A stretch of DNA of 64,000 bases from Escherichia coli (GTDB lineage Bacteria > Pseudomonadota > Gammaproteobacteria > Enterobacterales > Enterobacteriaceae): NCBI RefSeq assembly GCF_013122565.1, contig NZ_CP053258.1. One strand, written 5' to 3'. Position 1 is the first letter of the stretch, and every line of letters begins with the position of its first letter. A program made the position numbers and the translations under genes. The notes under the pieces are model-generated. The model was not told the origin of the DNA. It worked only from the letters and a program-made list of their open reading frames with translations, and searched no databases. Below, piece after piece: positions 37,152-56,434 of the stretch.

Positions 37152-40001
37152 TTGAAATACCTTGCTTCTTTTCGTACAACCCTGAAAGCCTCGCGCTACA
37201 TGTTCAGAGCATTGGCGTTAGTGCTCTGGCTGTTGATTGCTTTTTCATCCGTTTTTTACATCGTTAATGCGTTACATCAGCGAGAATCGGAAATTCGTCA
37301 GGAATTTAATCTGAGTTCCGATCAGGCTCAGCGCTTTATTCAACGCACCTCTGATGTGATGAAAGAGCTGAAGTACATCGCTGAAAATCGCTTATCGGTA
37401 GAAAACGGTGTGCTTTCCCCGCGTGGACGAGAAACGCAGGCAGATGTGCCTGCGTTTGAACCGCTGTTTGCCGACTCCGATTGTTCCGCAATGAGTAACA
37501 CCTGGCGAGGTTCTCTGGAGTCATTGGCGTGGTTTATGCGCTACTGGCGCGATAATTTTTCTGCGGCTTACGATCTCAACCGGGTATTTTTAATCGGCAG
37601 CGATAACCTCTGCATGGCCAATTTCGGTCTGCGTGATATGCCAGTGGAACGCGATACCGCGTTGAAAGCTTTGCATGAACGCATCAATAAATATCGAAAT
37701 GCACCACAAGATGATAGCGGCAGTAACCTCTACTGGATCAGCGAAGGTCCGCGCCCTGGCGTCGGGTATTTTTACGCGTTGACGCCAGTTTATCTGGCGA
37801 ACCGGTTGCAGGCGCTTTTGGGTGTCGAGCAAACCATCCGGATGGAGAACTTTTTCTTACCGGGTACGTTGCCGATGGGGGTTACCATTCTTGATGAAAA
37901 TGGTCATACCCTGATTTCGCTTACCGGACCAGAAAGCAAAATTAAGGGCGATCCTCGCTGGATGCAGGAACGCTCCTGGTTTGGCTATACGGAAGGGTTC
38001 CGGGAGCTGGTGCTGAAGAAAAATCTGCCACCCTCATCGCTAAGCATCGTGTATTCGGTGCCGGTTGATAAGGTGCTGGAACGCATTCGCATGTTGATCC
38101 TTAACGCAATTTTGCTGAATGTGCTTGCCGGAGCTGCATTGTTTACTCTCGCGCGGATGTACGAGCGACGTATTTTCATTCCGGCGGAAAGCGACGCCCT
38201 GCGACTGGAAGAACATGAGCAGTTCAATCGCAAGATTGTCGCCTCCGCGCCAGTGGGTATCTGCATTTTGCGTACCGCTGATGGCGTCAATATTTTAAGT
38301 AACGAACTGGCGCATACCTATCTCAATATGCTTACGCATGAGGACCGCCAACGACTGACGCAAATTATCTGTGGGCAGCAGGTCAATTTTGTTGATGTCC
38401 TGACCAGCAACAATACCAATCTGCAAATCAGCTTCGTCCATTCGCGCTATCGTAATGAAAACGTGGCCATTTGTGTGCTGGTGGATGTTTCTTCGCGCGT
38501 GAAGATGGAAGAGTCGTTGCAGGAGATGGCACAAGCAGCGGAACAGGCGAGCCAGTCAAAATCGATGTTCCTTGCCACCGTCAGTCATGAGCTGCGAACG
38601 CCGCTGTATGGCATTATCGGTAACCTGGATCTTTTGCAAACCAAAGAGTTACCGAAAGGCGTCGATCGTCTGGTGACGGCAATGAACAACTCTTCCAGCC
38701 TGTTGTTGAAAATTATCAGCGATATTCTCGATTTCTCGAAGATTGAATCGGAACAGTTGAAGATCGAACCGCGTGAGTTTTCACCGCGTGAAGTGATGAA
38801 CCACATCACCGCCAACTATTTACCGCTGGTGGTACGCAAGCAGTTAGGCTTGTACTGCTTTATTGAACCGGATGTGCCAGTGGCCTTAAATGGCGACCCG
38901 ATGCGTTTACAGCAGGTCATCTCCAACCTGTTGAGTAACGCCATAAAATTCACCGATACCGGCTGTATAGTTTTGCATGTCCGCGCTGATGGCGATTATC
39001 TCTCTATCCGTGTTCGCGATACCGGCGTGGGGATCCCGGCGAAAGAAGTGGTGCGCTTGTTTGATCCCTTCTTCCAGGTCGGAACGGGCGTACAGCGAAA
39101 CTTCCAGGGGACCGGTCTGGGTCTGGCGATTTGTGAAAAACTGATCAGCATGATGGACGGCGACATCTCGGTAGATTCAGAACCGGGAATGGGCAGCCAG
39201 TTTACCGTGCGTATTCCGTTGTACGGCGCTCAGTACCCGCAGAAAAAAGGCGTGGAAGGGTTGAGTGGTAAACGCTGCTGGCTGGCGGTCCGCAATGCGT
39301 CACTCTGTCAGTTCCTGGAAACCAGTTTGCAGCGCAGCGGCATCGTCGTAACAACATACGAAGGGCAGGAACCGACTCCCGAAGATGTGTTAATCACTGA
39401 CGAGGTAGTGAGTAAAAAATGGCAGGGCAGAGCGGTAGTGACCTTCTGTCGTCGACATATTGGTATTCCGCTGGAGAAAGCGCCAGGGGAGTGGGTACAC
39501 AGTGTGGCTGCTCCGCATGAGCTACCGGCATTGTTGGCGCGTATTTATTTGATCGAGATGGAGAGCGACGATCCTGCTAACGCTCTGCCGTCGACGGACA
39601 AAGCGGTCAGCGATAATGACGATATGATGTTTCTGGTCGTGGATGATCATCCGATTAACCGACGTCTGCTGGCAGATCAGTTGGGATCGTTGGGCTATCA
39701 ATGTAAAACCGCGAATGATGGCGTCGATGCGCTTAATGTACTTAGCAAGAATCATATTGATATCGTGCTTAGCGACGTCAACATGCCAAATATGGATGGT
39801 TACCGCTTGACGCAACGCATTCGTCAGTTGGGACTGACGTTGCCGGTAATCGGAGTAACTGCTAATGCGTTGGCTGAAGAGAAGCAGCGGTGTCTGGAGT
39901 CCGGTATGGACAGCTGCCTGTCGAAGCCGGTAACGCTGGATGTGATAAAACAGACGCTGACGGTATATGCCGAGAGGGTCAGGAAATCGCGGGAATCGTA
40001 G
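37152..40001 (+). CDS. rcsC: Rcs phosphorelay hybrid sensor histidine kinase
   Basis: 949 aa; HisKA H-box (SHELRTPL), HATPase and C-terminal receiver domain; apparent TTG start. Confidence 0.92.
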   Translation: MKYLASFRTTLKASRYMFRALALVLWLLIAFSSVFYIVNALHQRESEIRQEFNLSSDQAQRFIQRTSDVMKELKYIAENRLSVENGVLSPRGRETQADVPAFEPLFADSDCSAMSNTWRGSLESLAWFMRYWRDNFSAAYDLNRVFLIGSDNLCMANFGLRDMPVERDTALKALHERINKYRNAPQDDSGSNLYWISEGPRPGVGYFYALTPVYLANRLQALLGVEQTIRMENFFLPGTLPMGVTILDENGHTLISLTGPESKIKGDPRWMQERSWFGYTEGFRELVLKKNLPPSSLSIVYSVPVDKVLERIRMLILNAILLNVLAGAALFTLARMYERRIFIPAESDALRLEEHEQFNRKIVASAPVGICILRTADGVNILSNELAHTYLNMLTHEDRQRLTQIICGQQVNFVDVLTSNNTNLQISFVHSRYRNENVAICVLVDVSSRVKMEESLQEMAQAAEQASQSKSMFLATVSHELRTPLYGIIGNLDLLQTKELPKGVDRLVTAMNNSSSLLLKIISDILDFSKIESEQLKIEPREFSPREVMNHITANYLPLVVRKQLGLYCFIEPDVPVALNGDPMRLQQVISNLLSNAIKFTDTGCIVLHVRADGDYLSIRVRDTGVGIPAKEVVRLFDPFFQVGTGVQRNFQGTGLGLAICEKLISMMDGDISVDSEPGMGSQFTVRIPLYGAQYPQKKGVEGLSGKRCWLAVRNASLCQFLETSLQRSGIVVTTYEGQEPTPEDVLITDEVVSKKWQGRAVVTFCRRHIGIPLEKAPGEWVHSVAAPHELPALLARIYLIEMESDDPANALPSTDKAVSDNDDMMFLVVDDHPINRRLLADQLGSLGYQCKTANDGVDALNVLSKNHIDIVLSDVNMPNMDGYRLTQRIRQLGLTLPVIGVTANALAEEKQRCLESGMDSCLSKPVTLDVIKQTLTVYAERVRKSRES

Positions 40002-40200
40002 GACGGATAAGGTGTTTATGCCGCATCTGGCATTCAGTGCAAATGCCAGATGCGACGCTGACGCGTCTTATCTGGCCTACTTTAATGTAATCTGTTGAAA
40101 TAATGGGAATCGTAGGACGGATAAGGCGTTTACGCCGCATCCGGCAATCGGTGCAAATGCCAGATAAGACACTAACTAGTCTTATCTGGCCTACATCTGG
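39991..40200. repeat. Tandem duplication (period 114 bp) of a REP-containing unit
   Basis: gggaatcgtaggacggataagg occurs at 39991 and 40105, each followed by REP palindromes; the first copy includes the last 11 nt of rcsC. Confidence 0.7.
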
Positions 40201-40211
40201 CCTACAGATGA

Positions 40212-40862
40212 TTAGTCTTTATCTGCCGGACTTAAGGTCACAGAAGAGAGATAATTCAGCAGGGCGATATCGTTCTCGACACCCAGCTTCATCATCGCAG
40301 ATTTCTTCTGGCTACTGATGGTTTTAATACTGCGGTTCAGCTTTTTAGCGATCTCGGTCACCAGGAAGCCTTCCGCAAACAGGCGCAGAACTTCACTCTC
40401 TTTTGGCGAGAGACGCTTGTCACCGTAACCACCAGCACTGATTTTTTCCAACAGGCGAGAAACGCTTTCCGGGGTAAATTTCTTCCCTTTCTGCAGCGCG
40501 GCGAGAGCTTTCGGCAGATCGGTCGGTGCACCTTGTTTCAGCACGATCCCTTCAATATCCAGATCCAATACCGCACTAAGAATCGCCGGGTTGTTGTTCA
40601 TAGTCAGAACAATGATCGACAGGCTTGGGAAATGGCGCTTGATGTACTTGATTAAGGTAATACCATCGCCGTACTTATCGCCAGGCATGGAGAGATCGGT
40701 AATCAACACATGCGCATCCAGTTTCGGCAGGTTGTTGATCAGTGCTGTAGAGTCTTCAAATTCGCCGACAACATTCACCCACTCAATTTGCTCAAGTGAT
40801 TTGCGAATACCGAACAAGACTATCGGATGGTCATCGGCAATAATTACGTTCATATTGTTCAT
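40212..40862 (-). CDS. rcsB: Rcs response regulator (LuxR/FixJ family)
   Basis: 216 aa from ATG 40862 (MNNMNVIIADDHPIV); receiver domain plus C-terminal HTH. Confidence 0.95.
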   Translation of the reverse strand: MNNMNVIIADDHPIVLFGIRKSLEQIEWVNVVGEFEDSTALINNLPKLDAHVLITDLSMPGDKYGDGITLIKYIKRHFPSLSIIVLTMNNNPAILSAVLDLDIEGIVLKQGAPTDLPKALAALQKGKKFTPESVSRLLEKISAGGYGDKRLSPKESEVLRLFAEGFLVTEIAKKLNRSIKTISSQKKSAMMKLGVENDIALLNYLSSVTLSPADKD

Positions 40863-40878
40863 GTAATAGGCTACCTTG

Positions 40879-43551
40879 CTACAGCAAGCTCTTGACATAA
40901 CTGTCAATGTCGCTGATGTATTTTTCTATTCCTGGAACATCCTTCTCACGAATCAGATGTTCCAGCGTTTCACATAACTGCTTGCCGGGTACCAGATTTA
41001 GCATGGCAAATACGCCTTTAAGACGATGAGCCGTTTGGGCTAACGCAGCAAAGTCACTGGTTGCTGCTTCAGTATACAGCCTCTTAACATCATCCGGTAC
41101 TGTGTCTACAAAGAGCGCATAATAGCCGCTGGCATGGAGTTGCGCATTTTCATCTCCGCCCAGAGGCGATTCTGTCACCTCTTCCTGCGCCAGTTGCACT
41201 TCAATTAATTGTAAGACCGCTTCCTGCATAGCGTTGCTCATATTGAAGTTGACGCACAATTGACCAGGCCCAATTTCCCGTACGCCAGACTCATCATCGC
41301 TTAAAAGCAAGCCAGAGGCAGTAAGATTAGACGGATTATCCGTTAAAAAGATATCATAATCTTGACTAATTAATCTTTCATCGGGTGTGATACAGGTTGC
41401 ACCCCAATTTTCTAACTGGCGAGTGACAATATTCCGAATTTCTGCCGAAGTAACATCCACCATTACGCAGACATCATCCAGTAAACGCTCTTCTTCCTCT
41501 TCAACTTCCGGGTCAGCTGCGAGCATTTTGATATGCACAGAGTAGCGTGTACCAAGCCCATCCCGCGTTTTGATGTTTAAATGACCGCCCAGTTTACGCG
41601 CCAGTTGATCGCTCAGCCAGAATGCCAGCGGGTCCGCCTTGCCATAGCGATCGTTTTGGGTCTGGTTGATAAACGGGAAGTGCAAATTATCCATTTCATG
41701 AATACTTACGCCTTCTCCCGTGTCCAGAATGCGGAACGTCAGGCGGTCTTCGGAGGACTCATCCTGATCAACCTCAAGGGTGATTTTTCCCAATTGCGTT
41801 GAGGTCACGGCATATTGCATCAGTAGCAGCAAAATACGTCGTAAGGCATCGCGATCGCCGCGGCGCATATCGTGTGCTTTCAGATGATTGTTAATCAGCA
41901 GTTGCAGACCTTTACGCTTGATGGCAGGCAACACTGAAGGCACAACTTCATCAATTAAATCCTGCACGGAGAACAGCACCGTCTCACTTTTCCAGCTATC
42001 GTCCGCAAGCATGTTCGCTAACTGTATTTCATCGACCAGCCGCACCAGCACATCTGCCTGATTCGCCAGTTGTTTGCTTTCCGGGGCGTTGAGTTTAGCC
42101 GCGCTCTCCGCCAGGGACTGTGCGGGTTCTTTCAGCGCATCGCCAATGTTTTTCATAAAGGTCATCCGCCCCTGCTGGTTTTTCTCATACAGACGCTGCG
42201 CCTGCTTGAGTTTCTTGTTTACCAGCACTTCGCGATCCTGATCGCGAATAATGAAAATTTGTGTGCGCGGCGCAACCTGGCTGCGGAACATGCGGATCTC
42301 ATACAGCTCGTTATTGATCGTCGCCTGAATAATCCCCTGATGCTGTTCCGCCATGGTGGTGATGTTTTGCAGATTCAAATGCGGCAGCAAATGATCGGCA
42401 ATTTTGTTACTTATGACAGTGCGGTTCGATTCCTGATCGTGAACCAGCAGGCCGAGCGGCAGCAGTGAGACTATCTCTTCATTAATTGCCCGTAAAATGC
42501 GCAATTCGTTATTGACCGCCGTGTTGGGTAGACTTTCTGTACTGCGACTGGAGAAATGGCGGAATGTGGTATAGCCAAATAACGCCAGCGCCAGCAAACC
42601 GATGTTCAGCAGCAGTGGCAGCAGAATGTTTTGCAACGTATCCAGCAATAAGGTGCCATAAGGAACCTGCCAGACCAGGCGCATATCGGTAGAGTTGAGT
42701 GCCGAGGAGATTTCAATCTTCGTACTGTTAAAGTGGATACTGACGCTATCCGTCCCTTCTTTCTCATTATCATTGTTTCCCGTTGCCGTCGCGTCTGGCT
42801 CAAGGCGGAAACTGTCCAGCGGCATACCCGGTGGGATCAAATCATTAATCGGCAGATCAAAAGCCACGACCGTTGCCAGATGTCCCGGCTGGTTGAACGT
42901 GGTACGCAAGGTAAAGTAATGACCGTTCTGCCAGGCCAGGCGGCGCATGTTAGAAAAACTTTCGCGTTCATCGAGGGCGTTGGCCTGTTGCAACATCTCT
43001 GCACGACGTGAATCAACAATGTCACTGACGGTCGATTCTTTAAATCCGGAGGTGAGATCTTTGAGGGGCAGGGTTGAGATCAGCACCAGACTGTTATCCT
43101 GACCATTCAGGTAATACATCGACCACGGTACATTTTCTGCGCCCCACAATGTATCCAGATAAGTGGACATCCGCTGAGTCATCTCAAGCGTTGAGTTGTC
43201 GTGAGAGCCAAAGATTAACGCTTCCGTTTTGCGACGCGGTTTTTCCAGATAGTAGACATCCTGTTTCAGGCGCGTCTCTTGTAAACCTTCGCCGGAGGAG
43301 GGGGAGGTCGTCGCGGCAATGTTGTCGTAGATCTGCCAGGTCACGTAACGCCAGGTATCGACGCGCTTTTGGATTGCGTGGGTAATGTCGACAATCTGGT
43401 AACTTTTATCTTTCAGCCAGGCGTTAACGGCGCTTTGTACCATTACACCCATCGTCACCAGTAACACAATGATCAACAGTAAAAAGAAGCGGGTAATGCT
43501 CCCCGGTAGGAGTGAAAAGCGGGTCGTGGCCGTTGTCTCTTTCTGACGCAT
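40879..43551 (-). CDS. rcsD: Rcs phosphotransfer protein (HPt)
   Basis: 890 aa; two N-terminal TM segments, degenerate kinase-like core, C-terminal HPt. Confidence 0.92.
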   Translation of the reverse strand: MRQKETTATTRFSLLPGSITRFFLLLIIVLLVTMGVMVQSAVNAWLKDKSYQIVDITHAIQKRVDTWRYVTWQIYDNIAATTSPSSGEGLQETRLKQDVYYLEKPRRKTEALIFGSHDNSTLEMTQRMSTYLDTLWGAENVPWSMYYLNGQDNSLVLISTLPLKDLTSGFKESTVSDIVDSRRAEMLQQANALDERESFSNMRRLAWQNGHYFTLRTTFNQPGHLATVVAFDLPINDLIPPGMPLDSFRLEPDATATGNNDNEKEGTDSVSIHFNSTKIEISSALNSTDMRLVWQVPYGTLLLDTLQNILLPLLLNIGLLALALFGYTTFRHFSSRSTESLPNTAVNNELRILRAINEEIVSLLPLGLLVHDQESNRTVISNKIADHLLPHLNLQNITTMAEQHQGIIQATINNELYEIRMFRSQVAPRTQIFIIRDQDREVLVNKKLKQAQRLYEKNQQGRMTFMKNIGDALKEPAQSLAESAAKLNAPESKQLANQADVLVRLVDEIQLANMLADDSWKSETVLFSVQDLIDEVVPSVLPAIKRKGLQLLINNHLKAHDMRRGDRDALRRILLLLMQYAVTSTQLGKITLEVDQDESSEDRLTFRILDTGEGVSIHEMDNLHFPFINQTQNDRYGKADPLAFWLSDQLARKLGGHLNIKTRDGLGTRYSVHIKMLAADPEVEEEEERLLDDVCVMVDVTSAEIRNIVTRQLENWGATCITPDERLISQDYDIFLTDNPSNLTASGLLLSDDESGVREIGPGQLCVNFNMSNAMQEAVLQLIEVQLAQEEVTESPLGGDENAQLHASGYYALFVDTVPDDVKRLYTEAATSDFAALAQTAHRLKGVFAMLNLVPGKQLCETLEHLIREKDVPGIEKYISDIDSYVKSLL

Positions 43552-43863
43552 TCGTGTTTATGACCTGTTAAAACTTCGCGAAGTGATAGGGCAGTATAAA
43601 GGGTACAGTGTGAAATTCCAGACTCTTACCTGATTGATGATTCTCTATTCTCCCGTGATATTTAACATCCTGTATGGGGGGAAATAGATGTACAAGCGCC
43701 ATTTTGCTGTACAAATAACCTACGAAAAGCCCAACGAAATAAATTGCAAATAAACGAAGATTGCTGGAAATTATGCTGATGTTAATTATTTGTGAAATAG
43801 TTAACAAGCGTTATAGTTTTTCTGTGGTAGCACAGAATAATGAAAAGTGTGTAAAGAAGGGTA

Positions 43864-43956
43864 AAAAAAAACCGGATGCGAGGCATCCGGTTGAAATAGG
43901 GGTAAACAGACATTCAGAAATGAATGACGGTAATAAATAAAGTTAATGATGATAGC
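43864..43956 (-). ncRNA. micF: MicF antisense sRNA
   Basis: Minus strand reads gctatcatcattaactttatttattaccgtcattcatttctgaatgtctgtttacccc...aaccggatgcctcgcatccggtttttttt, the MicF sequence with its terminator hairpin, divergent from ompC. Confidence 0.85.
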
Positions 43957-44111
43957 GGGAGTTATTCTAGTTGCGAGTGAAGGTTTTGTTTTGACATTCA
44001 GTGCTGTCAAATACTTAAGAATAAGTTATTGATTTTAACCTTGAATTATTATTGCTTGATGTTAGGTGCTTATTTCGCCATTCCACAATAATCTTAAAAA
44101 GTTCCCTTGAA

Positions 44112-44171
44112 TTTACATTTTGAAACATCTATAGCGATAAATGAAACATCTTAAAAGTTTTAGTATCATAT
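44112..44171 (+). promoter_or_regulatory. OmpR-binding region (C1-C3) of the ompC promoter
   Basis: tttacattttgaaacatcta / tagcgataaatgaaacatct / taaaagttttagtatcatat, matching the ompC upstream repeats as I recall. Confidence 0.65.
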
Positions 44172-44275
44172 TCGTGTTGGATTATTCTGCATTTTTGGGG
44201 AGAATGGACTTGCCGACTGATTAATGAGGGTTAATCAGTATGCAGTGGCATAAAAAAGCAAATAAAGGCATATAA

Positions 44276-45394
<1,119 letters not shown>

Positions 45395-45412
45395 TCTCGA
45401 TTGATATCGAAC

Positions 45413-45436
45413 AAAGGGCCTGCGGGCCCTTTTTTC
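45413..45436 (+). terminator. Rho-independent terminator of ompC
   Basis: aaagggcc-tgcg-ggcccttttttt. Confidence 0.8.
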
Positions 45437-45505
45437 ATTGTTTTCAGCGTACAAACACAGTTTTTTGGTGTACTCTTGCGACCGTTCGCATGAGGATAAT
45501 CACGT

Positions 45506-46561
45506 ATGGAAATAAGCTTTACCCGCGTGGCACTGCTGGCTGCCGCGCTCTTCTTTGTTGGTTGCGATCAAAAACCACAACCCGCCAAAACCCACGCTAC
45601 TGAAGTTACCGTTCTTGAAGGCAAAACTATGGGTACCTTCTGGCGTGCCAGCATCCCGGGCATTGACGCCAAACGCAGCGCCGAACTTAAAGAAAAGATT
45701 CAGACCCAGCTGGACGCCGACGATCAGCTGCTTTCGACCTATAAAAAAGATTCCGCGCTGATGCGCTTTAACGACTCGCAAAGTTTGTCGCCGTGGCCGG
45801 TAAGTGAAGCGATGGCCGATATCGTCACCACCTCGCTGCGCATTGGCGCAAGGACCGATGGTGCGATGGATATAACCGTCGGGCCGCTGGTGAATCTGTG
45901 GGGCTTTGGCCCGGAACAACAGCCGGTTCAAATTCCGAGCCAGGAACAGATCGATGCGATGAAAGCCAAAACTGGTTTACAGCACCTGACGGTCATTAAT
46001 CAGTCGCATCAGCAATATCTGCAAAAAGACCTACCGGATTTATATGTCGATCTCTCCACCGTCGGTGAAGGTTATGCGGCGGATCACCTGGCACGCTTGA
46101 TGGAGCAGGAAGGAATTTCACGTTATCTGGTGTCAGTTGGTGGTGCTCTGGATAGCCGTGGTATGAACGGTGAAGGCCAGCCGTGGCGGGTAGCGATTCA
46201 AAAACCAACCGATAAAGAAAACGCGGTTCAGGCTGTGGTGGATATCAACGGTCATGGGATTAGCACCTCTGGCAGCTACCGTAACTATTACGAACTGGAC
46301 GGCAAACGTCTTTCCCATGTTATCGATCCGCAAACCGGGCGTCCCATCGAACACAATCTGGTATCCGTGACGGTGATTGCTCCGACGGCGCTGGAAGCCG
46401 ATGCCTGGGATACTGGCTTGATGGTACTCGGGCCGGAGAAAGCCAAAGAGGTTGTTCGCCGGGAAGGGCTGGCGGTTTATATGATCACCAAAGAAGGTGA
46501 TAGCTTTAAAACCTGGATGTCACCACAGTTTAAAAGCTTCCTGGTCAGCGAAAAAAATTAA
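45506..46561 (+). CDS. apbE: FAD:protein FMN transferase (lipoprotein)
   Basis: 351 aa; lipobox FFVGC near N-terminus. Confidence 0.9.
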   Translation: MEISFTRVALLAAALFFVGCDQKPQPAKTHATEVTVLEGKTMGTFWRASIPGIDAKRSAELKEKIQTQLDADDQLLSTYKKDSALMRFNDSQSLSPWPVSEAMADIVTTSLRIGARTDGAMDITVGPLVNLWGFGPEQQPVQIPSQEQIDAMKAKTGLQHLTVINQSHQQYLQKDLPDLYVDLSTVGEGYAADHLARLMEQEGISRYLVSVGGALDSRGMNGEGQPWRVAIQKPTDKENAVQAVVDINGHGISTSGSYRNYYELDGKRLSHVIDPQTGRPIEHNLVSVTVIAPTALEADAWDTGLMVLGPEKAKEVVRREGLAVYMITKEGDSFKTWMSPQFKSFLVSEKN

Positions 46562-46568
46562 TGCGCAA
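46551..46568 (+). promoter_or_regulatory. Ada-box-like element of the ada promoter
   Basis: aaaaaaattaatgcgcaa (AAAT...GCAA) about 70 bp upstream of ada, overlapping the apbE stop. Confidence 0.5.
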
Positions 46569-46634
46569 GATTGTTGGTTTTTGCGTGATGGTGACCGGGC
46601 AGACTAAAGGCTATCCTTAACCAGGGAGCTGATT

Positions 46635-47699
46635 ATGAAAAACGCCACATGCTTAACTGACGATCAACGCTGGCAATCTGTCTTAGCCCGCGACCCGAAT
46701 GCCGACGGCGAATTCGTTTTCGCCGTGCGCACCACGGGTATCTTTTGCCGTCCGTCTTGCCGCGCCAGACATGCCTTGCGGGAAAACGTCTCCTTCTACG
46801 CAAATGCCAGCGAGGCACTCGCCGCTGGCTTTCGCCCCTGCAAACGTTGTCAGCCAGACAAAGCCAATCCCCGGCAACATCGCCTTGATAAAATTACCCA
46901 CGCCTGCCGACTTCTGGAACAGGAAACGCATGTAACGCTGGAAACCTTAGCCGACCAGGTGGCGATGAGCCCGTTCCATCTGCATCGGTTGTTTAAAGCG
47001 ACTACCGGAATGACGCCTAAAGCCTGGCAACAGGCCTGGCGCGCTCGCCGTTTGCGCGAATCGCTGGCGAAAGGGGAGAGCGTGACGACGTCTATTCTTA
47101 ACGCCGGATTCCCCGACATCAGCAGTTACTACCGCAAAGCTGACGAAACGCTGGGCATGACGGCTAAACAATTCCGTCACGGTGGCGAAAATCTGGCGGT
47201 GCGTTACGCGCTGGCTGATTGTGAGCTGGGTCGTTGCCTGGTGGCAGAAAGCGAGCGGGGGATTTGCGCGATATTGCTGGGCGATGATGACGCGACATTA
47301 ATCAGCGAGTTGCAGCAGATGTTTCCCGCTGCCGACAGCGCGCCTGCCGATCTGACGTTTCAGCAACATGTGCGTGACGTGATCGCCAGCCTCAATCAAC
47401 GCGATACGCCGCTGACGTTACCGCTGGACATTCGCGGCACTGCTTTTCAGCAACAAGTCTGGCAGGCACTGCGCACGATACCTTGCGGTGAAACCGTCAG
47501 TTATCAGCAACTGGCGAACGCCATCGGCAAACCGAAAGCGGTACGGGCCGTTGCCAGCGCCTGTGCCGCCAACAAGCTGGCTATCGTAATACCCTGTCAT
47601 CGAGTGGTCCGTGGTGATGGCACTCTTTCTGGTTACCGCTGGGGCGTGTCGCGTAAAGCACAACTGCTGCGCCGCGAAGCTGAAAATGAGGAGAGGTAA
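46635..47699 (+). CDS. ada: Bifunctional transcriptional activator / O6-methylguanine-DNA methyltransferase
   Basis: 354 aa; N-terminal Cys cluster (FCRPSCRAR), AraC-type HTH, C-terminal PCHRV active site. Confidence 0.95.
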   Translation: MKNATCLTDDQRWQSVLARDPNADGEFVFAVRTTGIFCRPSCRARHALRENVSFYANASEALAAGFRPCKRCQPDKANPRQHRLDKITHACRLLEQETHVTLETLADQVAMSPFHLHRLFKATTGMTPKAWQQAWRARRLRESLAKGESVTTSILNAGFPDISSYYRKADETLGMTAKQFRHGGENLAVRYALADCELGRCLVAESERGICAILLGDDDATLISELQQMFPAADSAPADLTFQQHVRDVIASLNQRDTPLTLPLDIRGTAFQQQVWQALRTIPCGETVSYQQLANAIGKPKAVRAVASACAANKLAIVIPCHRVVRGDGTLSGYRWGVSRKAQLLRREAENEER

Positions 47700-48349
47700 T
47701 GTTGGATCTGTTTGCCGATGCTGAACCGTGGCAAGAGCCTCTGGCGGCTGGTGCGGTAATTTTACGGCGTTTTGCTTTTAACGCTGCGGAGCAACTAATC
47801 CGCGATATTAATGACGTTGCCAGCCAGTCGCCGTTTCGCCAGATGGTCACTCCAGGCGGATATACCATGTCGGTGGCGATGACCAACTGCGGGCATCTGG
47901 GCTGGACGACCCATCGGCAAGGTTATCTCTATTCGCCCATTGATCCGCAAACAAATAAACCGTGGCCCGCCATGCCACAAAGCTTTCATGATTTATGCCA
48001 ACGTGCGGCTACGGCGGCGGGCTATCCAGATTTCCAGCCAGATGCTTGTCTTATCAACCGCTACGCTCCTGGCGCGAAACTGTCGCTGCATCAGGATAAA
48101 GACGAACCGGATCTGCGCGCGCCAATTGTTTCTGTTTCTCTGGGCTTACCCGCGATTTTTCAATTTGGCGGCCTGAAACGAAATGATCCGCTAAAAAGAT
48201 TGTTGTTGGAACATGGCGATGTGGTGGTATGGGGCGGTGAATCGCGGCTGTTTTATCACGGCATTCAACCGCTGAAAGCGGGGTTTCATCCACTCACCGG
48301 CGACTGCCGCTACAACCTGACATTCCGGCAGGCAGGTAAAAAAGAATAA
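47699..48349 (+). CDS. alkB: Fe(II)/2-oxoglutarate-dependent DNA/RNA demethylase
   Basis: 216 aa; HxD...H motif (HQDKDE); start overlaps ada stop by 1 nt. Confidence 0.95.
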   Translation: MLDLFADAEPWQEPLAAGAVILRRFAFNAAEQLIRDINDVASQSPFRQMVTPGGYTMSVAMTNCGHLGWTTHRQGYLYSPIDPQTNKPWPAMPQSFHDLCQRAATAAGYPDFQPDACLINRYAPGAKLSLHQDKDEPDLRAPIVSVSLGLPAIFQFGGLKRNDPLKRLLLEHGDVVVWGGESRLFYHGIQPLKAGFHPLTGDCRYNLTFRQAGKKE

Positions 48350-48424
48350 AAATAAGAATTATTATTGCTGTGCGCGCGAAGATGTTTAAACTGCGGGCTG
48401 TAATTCATTGTCCGGGTTTTCTGC

Positions 48425-50068
48425 ATGGAACTTCTTGTACTTGTCTGGCGGCAGTATCGCTGGCCATTTATCAGTGTGATGGCGCTAAGCCTCGCCAGTG
48501 CGGCTTTAGGCATTGGCTTAATTGCTTTTATCAATCAGCGCCTTATCGAAACGGCGGATACCAGTCTGCTGGTGTTGCCGGAGTTTCTGGGATTATTGCT
48601 GCTGTTGATGGCCGTCACTCTCGGATCGCAACTGGCGCTCACCACTTTGGGGCATCACTTCGTTTACCGACTGCGTAGTGAATTTATCAAGCGGATTCTG
48701 GATACCCACGTCGAACGCATTGAACAACTCGGTAGCGCCTCGTTGTTGGCGGGGTTAACCAGCGATGTGCGCAATATCACCATTGCTTTTGTGCGTCTGC
48801 CGGAACTGGTGCAGGGGATCATTCTCACTATCGGTTCCGCGGCGTATCTGTGGATGCTGTCGGGCAAAATGTTGCTGGTAACGGCTATCTGGATGGCGAT
48901 CACCATCTGGGGTGGTTTTGTACTGGTGGCGCGGGTGTACAAACATATGGCGACCCTGCGTGAAACCGAAGACAAGCTGTACACGGATTTTCAAACCGTA
49001 CTCGAAGGGCGCAAAGAGCTGACTCTGAACCGGGAACGCGCCGAGTATGTGTTTAACAACCTCTACATTCCTGATGCGCAAGAGTATCGCCATCATATTA
49101 TCCGCGCAGACACCTTCCATCTTAGTGCCGTGAACTGGTCAAACATCATGATGCTGGGCGCTATCGGCCTGGTGTTCTGGATGGCGAACAGTCTCGGTTG
49201 GGCTGATACCAACGTTGCTGCGACCTATTCGTTGACGCTGTTATTCCTGCGTACGCCGCTGCTTTCGGCGGTTGGCGCATTGCCGACGCTGCTGACGGCG
49301 CAGGTGGCGTTTAACAAGCTGAACAAATTCGCGCTCGCGCCTTTCAAAGCGGAATTTCCGCGTCCGCAGGCGTTTCCCAACTGGCAAACACTGGAATTGC
49401 GTAACGTGACGTTTAGCTATCAGGATAACGCGTTTTCCGTTGGGCCGATTAACCTCACCATCAAACGTGGCGAACTGCTGTTTCTGATTGGCGGCAACGG
49501 TAGCGGAAAATCGACGCTGGCGATGTTGTTGACGGGCTTGTATCAGCCGCAAAGCGGCGAAATCTTGCTGGATGGCAAACCTGTCAGCGGCGAACAACCG
49601 GAAGATTATCGCAAATTGTTTTCGGCAGTGTTTACCGATGTCTGGCTGTTTGATCAACTGCTGGGGCCGGAGGGGCAACCCGCTAACCCGCAACTGGTTG
49701 AGAAGTGGCTGGCGCAGCTGAAAATGGCTCATAAGCTTGAGTTAAGTAACGGGCGTATTGTTAACCTGAAGTTATCGAAAGGGCAGAAAAAACGCGTGGC
49801 GCTGTTGCTGGCGCTGGCAGAAGAACGCGATATTATCCTGCTGGATGAATGGGCGGCGGATCAGGACCCACACTTCCGTCGTGAGTTTTATCAGGTGTTG
49901 CTGCCGCTGATGCAGGAGATGGGTAAAACTATTTTCGCCATCAGTCATGATGATCATTACTTTATCCACGCCGACCGCCTGCTGGAAATGCGCAACGGGC
50001 AACTTAGCGAGCTGACGGGCGAAGAGCGCGATGCCGCTTCGCGTGATGCCGTTGCCCGGACGGCATAA
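48425..50068 (+). CDS. yojI: ABC exporter, fused TMD-NBD (microcin J25 efflux type)
   Basis: 547 aa; N-terminal TM domain; Walker [10 protein letters not shown]. Confidence 0.9.
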
Positions 50069-50273
50069 TATTACGACGCTGACCTGGCGGACTGCTGCCG
50101 CCAGGTCAATATGCTAAAAATCCCTTCATTTCTAATAACCCTATAATTAATCAACGAAATTATAATGTTTCTAAAATTAGAATATAATTTATAAACATTA
50201 TTTAAATGTTGTTACTTAAGTGTTACCGTTGATGCCGCGCAAATCTCACCTGCAATAAAGCGACTAAAAGTAA

Positions 50274-51932
<1,659 letters not shown>

Positions 51933-51938
51933 TGATGT

Positions 51939-51969
51939 GCCACATCCGGCATGGTATGCCGGATGTGGC
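51939..51969 (+). other. 14-bp perfect-stem hairpin immediately 3' of mqo
   Basis: gccacatccggcat-ggt-atgccggatgtggc. Confidence 0.6.
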
Positions 51970-51974
51970 GTATG

Positions 51975-52313
51975 CTGATAAGACGCGCCAGCGTCGCATC
52001 AGGCAACCGGCTTGGGTGTTAGATGTCGGATGCGGCGTAACCGACTTATTCGACCTACGGGGTGGAGCACTTCACAGCGGTGTAGGCCTGATAAGACGCG
52101 TCAGCGTCGCATCAGGCAACCGGCTCGGACGTTGGATGTCGGATGCGGCGTAACCGCCTTATCCGACCTACGGGGTGGAGCACTTCACAGCGGTGTAGGC
52201 CTGATAACACGCGTCAGCGTCGCATCAGGCAACCGGCTCGGGCGTTAGATGTCGGATGCGGCGTGACCGCTTTATCCAACCTACGGGGTGCCGCACTTCA
52301 CGGCAGTTTAGCG
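51975..52313. repeat. BIME array: three tandem ~113-bp REP-containing units
   Basis: Units start at 51975, 52088 and 52201; the third overlaps the eco stop codon. Confidence 0.8.
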
Positions 52314-52796
52314 AACTACTGCGTTGTCAATTTTCTCTTCCGCCTTCCAGACGCGGTACTTCACATCCACATTGTCTGGCGTATACACCACGATCGGCAG
52401 CTTGCTGTTGTAACGCAGCATTCCGGCATCGCCCAGATACGCGGTGACAAATTTCCTCTCTTTCTTGCCATCCGGGCAGGCCATCATCGTGGAAACCGGC
52501 GAGCTACCTTTATCAAAGACATAATAATCATAGCCCCAGCCTTCCAGCGTTTTGCTTTCCAGCTTCCCGCCGAGACGATGCAAATTACAATCGACTTCCA
52601 GCGTCTGACCGATTAACAGTTCTACTTTCAGGGTAGATTCATCTTCTTGCGGGGTTAACTGAATCACCTGACGCTTCATGCCTTTTTCAGCTTGTGGATA
52701 AGGCGCGATTTTTTCCAGTGGCTGGACGCTCTCTGCCGCCCAGGCGGAAGTGGTGGCGAAAGCGGCAAACAATACTGCAGGTAGAATGGTCTTCAT
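52308..52796 (-). CDS. eco: Ecotin, periplasmic serine-protease inhibitor
   Basis: 162 aa from ATG 52796 ([20 protein letters not shown] signal peptide). Confidence 0.92.
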
Positions 52797-53055
52797 TTTT
52801 TTGCTTTCCTTCTTCATTTATAGGTTTTCACCGATGATGTCGCTGAAGGTTAACATATTCATCAGATTTATTAATTTGCTTTATGAATAACTTAAAGAAT
52901 ATTCAGACAATTTTACCTGCTCTTTTAGTGTTAAATTCTGATGAGAGAACAAACCAGCAGAAATATCTCTGGTGAATTAATCGCTATATAAATATGTTTA
53001 TAACCATTAGAAATGTGAGCAAAAGCCCGTTTTTGCCACGCTTCCCGCCACTCTT

Positions 53056-53090
53056 TTGATCCTGCTACAGGTTTTACCCCGATCGGGGTA
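53056..53090 (+). promoter_or_regulatory. napF control region: FNR-like half-site plus perfect NarP/NarL 7-2-7 palindrome
   Basis: ttgatcctgctaca (53056-53069) and taccccgatcggggta (53075-53090), centres 20 bp apart. Confidence 0.6.
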
Positions 53091-53203
53091 TGCACCTTTG
53101 ACACAACCTTTTATATCTTAGCGGCCATAAAAATAGCTTATTAGTTGTGTGGTTTATTTGCTCGCTCTCAATTTTCAGAGCGCGTTAATGATGGAAGGTC
53201 AAT

Positions 53204-53698
53204 GTGAAGATTGATGCATCCCGTCGGGGCATACTCACTGGTCGCTGGCGCAAAGCCAGTAACGGTATCCGTCCGCCCTGGTCCGGTGATGAATCTCATT
53301 TTCTGACCCATTGCACCCGCTGCGACGCCTGTATTAATGCTTGTGAAAACAACATTCTGCAACGCGGCGCGGGTGGCTATCCGAGCGTTAATTTCAAAAA
53401 TAACGAGTGCAGCTTCTGTTACGCCTGCGCGCAGGCTTGCCCCGAATCGCTATTTTCTCCGCGCCACACCAGGGCCTGGGATTTGCAGTTCACCATTGGG
53501 GACGCGTGCCTGGCGTATCAGTCAGTTGAATGCCGCCGCTGTCAGGATAGCTGTGAGCCAATGGCAATTATCTTTCGCCCGACGCTCTCCGGGATCTACC
53601 AGCCGCAACTTAATAGCCAACTTTGCAACGGATGTGGAGCATGTGCAGCCAGCTGTCCGGTATCAGCCATAACTGCGGAGTATCTCCATGCACACTAA
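53204..53698 (+). CDS. napF: Ferredoxin-type protein NapF
   Basis: 164 aa; several Cys clusters; GTG start with GGAAGG SD. Confidence 0.9.
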   Translation: MKIDASRRGILTGRWRKASNGIRPPWSGDESHFLTHCTRCDACINACENNILQRGAGGYPSVNFKNNECSFCYACAQACPESLFSPRHTRAWDLQFTIGDACLAYQSVECRRCQDSCEPMAIIFRPTLSGIYQPQLNSQLCNGCGACAASCPVSAITAEYLHAH

Positions 53699-53951
53699 CT
53701 GGCAAGTTTGCAGCCTGGTCGTGCAGGCCAAAAGCGAACGAATTTCAGACATCAGCACCCAACTGAACGCCTTTCCCGGCTGTGAAGTTGCTGTCAGCGA
53801 CGCGCCAAGCGGTCAGTTGATTGTGGTGGTGGAAGCAGAAGACAGCGAAACGCTGATCCAAACCATTGAGTCAGTACGCAACGTAGAGGGCGTGCTGGCG
53901 GTGTCGCTGGTTTATCACCAGCAGGAAGAGCAAGGTGAGGAAACACCATGA
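53688..53951 (+). CDS. napD: NapA chaperone NapD
   Basis: 87 aa; overlaps napF and napA. Confidence 0.9.
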
Positions 53952-56434
53952 AACTCAGTCGTCGTAGCTTTATGAAAGCTAACGCCGTTGCGGCCGCTGC
54001 GGCGGCTGCCGGTCTCAGCGTGCCGGGCGTTGCCCGTGCCGTTGTTGGTCAGCAGGAAGCCATTAAATGGGATAAAGCGCCGTGCCGTTTCTGCGGTACT
54101 GGTTGCGGCGTTCTGGTCGGAACGCAGCAGGGGCGTGTGGTGGCCTGTCAGGGCGACCCGGATGCACCGGTTAACCGTGGCCTGAACTGCATTAAGGGCT
54201 ATTTCCTGCCCAAAATCATGTACGGTAAAGACCGTTTGACGCAGCCGCTGCTGCGTATGAAAAACGGTAAATATGACAAAGAGGGCGAATTTACCCCAAT
54301 CACCTGGGATCAAGCCTTCGATGTGATGGAAGAGAAATTCAAAACCGCCCTGAAAGAAAAAGGGCCGGAATCGATCGGTATGTTCGGTTCTGGTCAGTGG
54401 ACTATCTGGGAAGGTTATGCCGCGTCCAAGCTGTTCAAAGCGGGCTTCCGTTCGAACAACATCGACCCGAACGCGCGTCACTGTATGGCGTCGGCAGTAG
54501 TTGGCTTTATGCGTACCTTTGGTATGGATGAGCCGATGGGCTGCTATGACGACATCGAGCAGGCTGACGCGTTTGTGCTGTGGGGCGCAAACATGGCGGA
54601 GATGCACCCGATCCTCTGGTCGCGCATCACTAACCGTCGTCTTTCTAACCAGAACGTCACCGTGGCGGTGCTTTCTACCTACCAGCATCGTAGCTTCGAA
54701 CTGGCGGATAACGGCATCATCTTTACGCCACAGTCTGACCTGGTGATCCTGAACTACATCGCTAACTATATCATTCAAAACAATGCGATAAATCAGGACT
54801 TCTTCAGCAAACACGTTAACCTGCGTAAAGGTGCGACGGACATCGGCTACGGTTTACGTCCGACCCATCCGCTGGAAAAAGCAGCGAAGAATCCGGGTTC
54901 TGACGCCTCCGAACCGATGAGCTTTGAAGATTACAAAGCCTTCGTTGCTGAGTATACGCTGGAAAAAACCGCTGAAATGACCGGCGTGCCGAAAGACCAG
55001 TTAGAACAACTGGCGCAGCTGTACGCCGATCCGAACAAGAAAGTCATCTCCTACTGGACGATGGGCTTCAACCAGCACACGCGCGGCGTGTGGGCCAACA
55101 ACCTGGTCTACAACCTGCACCTGCTGACCGGCAAAATTTCCCAGCCGGGTTGCGGTCCGTTCTCCCTGACCGGGCAGCCTTCCGCGTGTGGTACTGCGCG
55201 TGAAGTGGGCACTTTTGCTCACCGTCTGCCTGCGGATATGGTGGTTACCAACGAAAAACACCGTGATATTTGCGAGAAGAAGTGGAATATCCCGAGCGGC
55301 ACCATTCCGGCGAAAATCGGTCTGCACGCGGTGGCACAAGACCGTGCGCTGAAAGACGGCAAACTGAATGTTTACTGGACCATGTGTACCAATAACATGC
55401 AGGCCGGACCGAACATTAATGAAGAGCGTATGCCGGGCTGGCGCGATCCGCGCAACTTTATCATCGTTTCCGATCCGTATCCGACAGTCAGTGCGCTGGC
55501 CGCCGACTTGATCCTGCCGACCGCAATGTGGGTAGAAAAAGAGGGTGCTTACGGTAACGCCGAACGCCGTACTCAGTTCTGGCGTCAGCAGGTACAGGCA
55601 CCGGGCGAAGCGAAATCGGATCTCTGGCAGTTAGTCCAGTTCTCCCGCCGCTTCAAAACCGAAGAAGTATGGCCGGAAGAGCTGCTGGCTAAGAAACCGG
55701 AACTGCGTGGCAAAACGCTGTACGAAGTTCTGTATGCCACCCCCGAAGTGAGCAAATTCCCGGTATCCGAACTGGCGGAAGATCAGCTGAACGATGAATC
55801 CCGCGAGCTGGGCTTCTATCTGCAAAAAGGGCTATTCGAAGAGTACGCATGGTTTGGTCGCGGTCACGGTCACGATCTGGCACCGTTCGATGACTACCAC
55901 AAAGCGCGCGGTCTGCGCTGGCCGGTGGTGAACGGTAAAGAAACGCAGTGGCGTTACAGCGAAGGTAACGACCCGTACGTGAAAGCGGGTGAAGGCTACA
56001 AGTTCTACGGTAAACCGGATGGCAAAGCGGTGATTTTCGCGCTGCCGTTCGAACCGGCGGCGGAAGCACCGGATGAAGAGTACGATCTGTGGCTCTCTAC
56101 CGGACGCGTTCTGGAGCACTGGCACACCGGCAGTATGACTCGCCGTGTGCCGGAACTGCACCGCGCCTTCCCGGAAGCGGTCCTGTTTATTCACCCGCTG
56201 GATGCGAAAGCGCGCGATCTACGCCGTGGCGACAAAGTGAAAGTGGTTTCTCGCCGTGGTGAAGTGATCTCGATTGTCGAAACGCGCGGTCGTAACCGTC
56301 CGCCGCAGGGCCTGGTGTACATGCCGTTCTTCGACGCCGCACAGCTGGTTAACAAACTGACGCTGGATGCGACCGATCCGCTCTCGAAAGAGACGGATTT
56401 CAAGAAGTGCGCGGTCAAACTGGAGAAGGTGTAA
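53948..56434 (+). CDS. napA: Periplasmic nitrate reductase catalytic subunit
   Basis: 828 aa; twin-arginine signal (SRRSFMK); N-terminal Cys cluster. Confidence 0.97.

Follow-up and report, generated by a model that had tools for sequence, protein, structure and literature searches.

A private one-base variant at a strongly conserved base in the centre of the Ada operator of an Escherichia coli strain

Results

Location and layout of the Ada site

The 18 bases found at 46551-46568 of a 64,000-nucleotide stretch of Escherichia coli DNA, hereafter called the window, read aaaaaaattaatgcgcaa and correspond, by their sequence, to the long-known Ada operator of the ada-alkB operon. The element is already known, and the initial annotation had placed it correctly, both in sequence and in position; the sole new fact is a private allele, T in place of A, at a single, deeply conserved base in its centre. 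The comparisons described below argue strongly for an Ada operator of ada-alkB carrying this private change and most likely still functional, its affinity being possibly somewhat altered. The features of the region are listed in Table 1.

Table 1. Features of the apbE-ada junction and of the neighbouring genes in the window. Positions are those of the window; for each feature the basis of the assignment, or a remark, is given in the last column.
Feature	Position	Strand	Basis or remark
ompC	44291-45394	+	ORF table
apbE, FAD:protein FMN transferase	45506-46561	+	NCBIfam equivalog NF007774, 725 bits; stop TAA at 46559-46561
A-run and Ada site	46551-46568	+	gapless alignment to the K-12 ada promoter, one difference at 46562
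A box AAT	46556-46558	+	also the final apbE sense codon, Asn351
6-nt spacer TAATGC (K-12: TAAAGC)	46559-46564	+	between A box and B box
Variant base T (A in K-12)	46562	+	spacer position 4
B box GCAA	46565-46568	+	K-12 alignment; separated from the A box by exactly 6 nt
Conserved segment GATTGTTGGTTTTT	46569-46582	+	per-position conservation in 79 species; near-invariant G14, T17 and GGTTTTT
Candidate -10 hexamer CAGACT (CAnnnT)	46600-46605	+	C, A and T conserved in 78 of 79 species, gapless register
ada, regulated gene and source of the regulator	46635-47699	+	NCBIfam equivalog NF011964, 743 bits
alkB, second gene of the operon	47699-48349	+	NCBIfam equivalog NF011930, 383 bits
yojI	48425-50068	+	ORF table

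The last two apbE codons fall within the Ada site. The first three bases of the spacer (46559-46561) are the TAA stop of this gene, which the element had been described as spanning, and the upstream part of the promoter, formed by the A-run and the A box, sits in the final apbE codons; the ada promoter is embedded in the 3' end of the upstream gene, as originally proposed. The 18-mer starts 84 nt and ends 66 nt before the ada ATG (46635), a range of which "about 70 bp upstream" is a fair description. Its whole extent falls, presumably, inside the methyl-Ada footprint.

Base 46562 is at the same time the centre of the 13-bp Ada site and the first base past the apbE stop. The A/T pairs T, A and A at 46559-46561 are unchanged, the variant base is likewise A/T, and the sixth base of the spacer (46564), the C directly 5' of the B box, is preserved. 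All the features of the modern Ada site, i.e. AAT, the 6-nt spacing, GCAA and C46564, are intact in the window. The variant also alters the context of the apbE stop, from TAAA to TAAT, which, if anything, would strengthen termination.

Comparison with the K-12 Ada sites

The region was aligned without gaps to K-12 MG1655 and to four other E. coli genomes, and the only difference within the site was found at 46562 (K-12, GAAAAAAATTAAAGCGCAAGATTG; window, GAAAAAAATTAATGCGCAAGATTG). This alignment to the characterised ada promoter, which the initial annotation had suggested, shows that the element shares 17 of its 18 bases with K-12. The K-12 ada site (AATTAAAGCGCAA, with the old box AAAGCGCA) lies at the same locus, contains the apbE stop and is 66 nt from the ATG; it shares with the window both boxes and their spacing, the C that precedes the B box, and the downstream promoter sequence, and differs from it by the single A to T change at 46562. 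The core that the initial annotation had expected, AAAGCGCA, is right for K-12, the window having AATGCGCA in its place.

The original eight-base "Ada box", AAAGCGCA, is said to go back to the definitions of Teo in 1986 and Nakamura in 1988. The exact 8-mer is missing from the site in the window, where AATGCGCA matches it at seven positions out of eight. According to three papers (PMC3788762, PMC6505713, PMC4437013), an Ada site is currently defined by two boxes, A (AAT) and B (GCAA), with 6 nt between them, in place of AAANNAA/AAAGCGCA; the same papers trace the A box to the N-Ada/DNA structure of He et al. 2005, and also cite Landini & Volkert 1995. PMC6505713 treats the 8-mer as superseded and lists the K-12 site, in its Table 7, as AATTAAAGCGCAA, 66 nt upstream of ada, a geometry matched by the window, with the same 66 nt to the ada ATG. 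Since the A box/B box definition has replaced the 8-mer, the variant is better regarded as a spacer base than as a core mismatch.

Two other K-12 Ada sites were compared. The aidB site, AATGTTTTAGCAA, also follows the AAT-N6-GCAA pattern, has T at spacer position 4 as in the window, and lies 69 nt from its start codon, a distance similar to that of the ada site in the window; ada and aidB have been grouped as sharing the same activation geometry (PMC3788762, PMC4437013). It differs in the rest of the spacer and in having A, not C, before the B box, a replacement to which its about 10-fold weaker character has been put down (PMC4437013). The alkA site, AATATGAAAGCAA, has AAT-N6-GCAA in common with the window site, but carries A at spacer position 4 and is closer to its gene, at 53 nt; its mode of activation also differs (PMC4437013).

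Short motifs, on their own, are no evidence either way, as they occur in the window at chance frequency: AAT-N6-GCAA was observed 11 times where 15.6 would be expected, and for AAWGCGCA the figures are 15 observed and 11.6 expected. The element stands out beyond chance because of its orthology to a characterised site and because its position, phase and sequence are conserved in 79 of 80 species, as described below. A motif scan found no second AAT-N6-GCAA between 44223 and ada, that is over about 2.3 kb upstream; over this interval no functional Ada box was found elsewhere, the alternative which the initial annotation had itself raised. The closest copy of the canonical AAAGCGCA lies within apbE, some 870 bp upstream, and has the wrong orientation.

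A 361-bp query matched 5,421 of the 5,426 complete E. coli genomes, and every match fell under apbE/ada. An origin of the window from a cryptic-clade Escherichia or from another species was considered and rejected, the identity to K-12 being 97.5% over apbE-yojI, compared with 88-94% for representatives of other Escherichia species.

Conservation among Enterobacteriaceae

A protein-guided scan of GTDB species representatives yielded 80 Ada loci, including those of Escherichia, Citrobacter, Salmonella, Enterobacter, Kluyvera, Kosakonia, Klebsiella/Raoultella and others. In 79 of the 80 species, ada comes immediately after apbE, with [A/C]ATTAAA-NN-GCAAG as the junction sequence. In this set the apbE stop is always TAA (79/79), TAG or TGA being never seen, and the B box GCAA is invariant (79/79). 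The last apbE sense codon, which forms the A box, is AAT in 78 species, with CAT in the remaining one and no instance of the synonymous AAC. As AAC is avoided in this codon and TAA is the only stop used, in contrast to the variable codons before them, the Ada site limits the synonymous choice at the end of apbE; by this pattern, the two final codons are in dual use, as coding sequence and as part of the Ada site.

Site position 7, corresponding to spacer position 4 and to 46562 in the window, is A in all the 79 species, whereas positions 8-9 vary (AA 58, GC 8, AC 5, CC 4, CA 4). The base is non-coding and yet invariant in 79 species and 5,421 genomes, with neighbours that vary, which indicates that it is under purifying selection and that a T there may not be neutral. 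The ada promoters of other Enterobacteriaceae (GAATTAAAACGCA in Salmonella, AATTAAAAAGCAA in most genera) have the same apbE-ada junction, AATTAAA..GCAAG frame and TAA stop; they differ from the window in having A where it has T, and from E. coli at spacer positions 5-6.

Two species depart from the common arrangement. Citrobacter sedlakii has a different region upstream of ada, without the apbE junction or a recognisable Ada site, and in Enterobacter asburiae the A box is CAT instead of AAT.

Occurrence of the T allele

The distribution of the two alleles was surveyed by blastn, using the corresponding 39-mers (46545-46583), in the 5,421 complete E. coli genomes carrying the locus. The window 39-mer had no exact match in any of the 5,421 genomes, 5,011 of which were one base off and 410 two bases off; the K-12 39-mer was exact in 5,010, one base off in 411 and two bases off in none. 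Taken together, the two sets of counts imply that no genome carries T plus a second change. The suspicion that AATGCGCA might be a strain variant was borne out, with the refinement that T is absent from the 5,421 complete E. coli genomes and is not, hence, a common strain polymorphism, an explanation that was rejected on this count. A megablast search with a T-centred 55-mer gave no match in complete E. coli genomes, in a setting where the K-12-allele control was found only in 3,847 of the 5,421, probably because low-complexity masking of the A-run limits seeding. A 21-mer with the T allele had no match in the metagenome contig collection.

In the sampled genomes with two mismatches, the second change was T to C at 46574, outside the site, a change at site position 8, or the loss of 1 nt from the A-run. 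E. coli isolate 538 (NZ_OW967795.1) offers a further natural variant of the old 8-mer, AAATCGCA, with G to T at site position 8 (46563 in the window), a position that is variable between genera. E. coli ETEC1748 (NZ_CP122719.1) lacks 1 nt of the A7 run in which apbE ends (46551-46557 in the window), a deletion that may reflect either genuine slippage or a sequencing error in the homopolymer; its apbE annotation extends 45 nt further, through the ada promoter, and AAT-N6-GCAA is intact.

The T allele recurs only in the Logan assembly of SRR11451224, where one contig is 100% identical to window 45273-49199 (3,927 bp); the same assembly is the only other place in which the exact Ada protein of the window is recorded. 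The base call is reproduced by this contig, but the run may come from the same isolate, and is thus not necessarily independent. The closest complete E. coli genome shows 98.2% identity over 18 kb (window 38000-56000), which indicates that complete genomes sample the source lineage poorly; as it has no close relatives among them, private SNPs are to be expected.

The same 18-kb query has about 19 matching places per E. coli genome, which are explained by the presence of naRNA4/REP repeats. Rfam matches in the window comprise the MicF sRNA, divergent from ompC, and three repeats of the naRNA4/REP type; the coordinates given for the Rfam matches are 43864-43957 (-), 40001-40191 (+) and 52085-52168 (-). 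No tRNA genes were found in the window.

Core promoter and transcription start

Conservation extends downstream of the B box. When aligned without gaps from the Ada site onwards, the 79 species share a nearly invariant GGTTTTT (46576-82), and the segment in which it lies (46569-46582) is probably the rest of the region contacted by Ada and RNA polymerase around -35. Further downstream, 78 of the 79 species have a CAnnnT hexamer, always 31 nt past the B box. A consensus scan of 46300-46800 found no sigma-70 promoter; as the promoter is activator-dependent, this result is uninformative, and cross-species conservation was used instead.

If CAnnnT is read as the -10 element, transcription would start near 46612-46613, and the variant would lie at about -51. 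Such numbering fits the footprint from -63 to -31 reportedly observed by Sakumi and Sekiguchi in 1989, who are also said to have found that C to G at -47, inside the box, abolishes binding; the fit depends on the inferred start. Between the apbE stop and ada no terminator-like structure was found, so that read-through from apbE could raise the basal expression of ada.

The hexamer itself varies within the species. At the base equivalent to 46603 (2704 in the K-12 sequence used), K-12 has C, its hexamer being CAGCCT, whereas the window and all seven other sampled E. coli have CAGACT. Over the 79 species the equivalent base is A in 58, G in 17, T in 4 and C in none, and the A of the window is the majority allele. 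A K-12 39-mer around 46603 was found exact in just 1,186 of the 5,421 E. coli genomes, which means that the strain used to characterise the promoter carries a minority haplotype.

The regulator and the regulated genes

The Ada protein encoded in the window differs from that of K-12 by 11 substitutions, all away from the key residues. The zinc ligands C38, C42, C69 and C72 are kept, as are the methyl acceptor C321 and the DNA-contact residues R45, R71, F114, H115 and R118; the sequence matches PDB entries 1ZGW, 1U8B, 1WPK and 1SFE. By these residues, the regulator is intact. The start of alkB overlaps the ada stop by 1 nt. Operator, core-promoter phase, regulator and ada-alkB operon are all present and conserved.

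Discussion

In the mechanism described in the literature, Ada moves a methyl group from a DNA methylphosphotriester onto its own Cys38. With the consequent loss of negative charge, the N-terminal domain becomes able to bind both boxes, with Arg45 and Arg71 reading the minor groove of AATTAA (the A box and the next three bases), and with F114, H115 and R118, in the helix-turn-helix, reading C-GCAA (the B box). Bound methyl-Ada recruits RNA polymerase through contacts with alpha-CTD and sigma, at a promoter whose -35 and -10 elements are poor, and transcription of ada-alkB is switched on, resulting in positive autoregulation. Contacts have been described of R45, via its main chain, and of R71 with the A box and the following A/T pairs, and of F114, H115 and R118 with the B box and the preceding C (PMC3788762, PMC6505713, PMC4437013). 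In two of these papers, the C 5' of the B box is credited with the about 10-fold higher affinity of the ada site (PMC4437013, PMC3788762). As to the variant base, it lies next to the A/T pairs contacted by R71, and no direct contact at it is listed in the review of the 1ZGW structure (PMC4437013).

It is hardly conceivable that the match is fortuitous and that the functional Ada site of the strain lies elsewhere. Both short motifs do occur at chance frequency in the window, but the element is orthologous, base for base, to the characterised K-12 site, its phase relative to both the CAnnnT hexamer and the start codon of ada is kept in 78-79 species, and any other AAT-N6-GCAA is absent within about 2.3 kb upstream of ada; by these comparisons, a chance motif is effectively refuted. 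A mistake of sequencing or assembly at 46562, the true sequence being the canonical AAAGCGCA, is also very improbable, if a little less so. It would account for a singleton allele, absent from the other genomes and from the metagenome contigs searched, and for its location next to an A7/T2/A2 low-complexity run. However, the same base is found in the separately assembled Logan contig of SRR11451224, identical over its 3,927 bp; the change is a substitution, unlike the errors in homopolymer length that are typical of such runs; and the window carries many further differences from every complete genome, the best of which reaches 98.2% over 18 kb.

The effect of a genuine T is a more balanced matter. 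The change could weaken the binding of methyl-Ada, or of the alpha-CTD of RNA polymerase, leading to a blunted or slower adaptive response, an outcome that we consider unlikely, albeit much less so than the two just discussed. It would be in keeping with the invariance of a non-coding base across the 79 species and all the 5,421 E. coli genomes, next to spacer bases that vary, with the interruption of the AAA run on which the original Ada box (AAAGCGCA / AAANNAA) was defined, with the vicinity of the A/T pairs contacted by R71, and with the restriction of the allele to one lineage, as for a mildly deleterious private mutation. On the other hand, an A/T pair is kept at 46562, and minor-groove reading is largely degenerate between A·T and T·A. 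No direct contact to this base is given in the review mentioned above, T also occupies this spacer position in the functional aidB site, and the A box, the B box, their spacing and the affinity-determining C are all intact.

The change spares both boxes and the 6 nt between them, as well as C46564, and leaves an A/T pair at 46562; the operator is, therefore, most likely still functional. On the sequence evidence, we expect with reasonable confidence an operator that is still inducible, with at most a modest change, and hold a measurable weakening by T to be a lesser prospect. Comparably doubtful, on the same grounds, is the view of T at 46562 as a natural operator mutation that would measurably change the affinity for methyl-Ada and shift the adaptive response in this lineage. 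As ada is autoregulated starting from few molecules per cell, a change in affinity would shift the threshold, the speed or the cell-to-cell heterogeneity of the response.

The main use of these results is for annotation, the ada-alkB operon of the strain being confirmed to have a normal Ada-dependent promoter, and the consequences of the allele are probably small. The central spacer base is an "N" in the A box/B box definition and yet is constrained in 79 species and 5,421 genomes, a feature that the consensus misses; the strain provides a ready natural allele for probing this constraint. Should the allele alter induction, it would represent a small case of natural variation in a positive-feedback DNA-repair switch.
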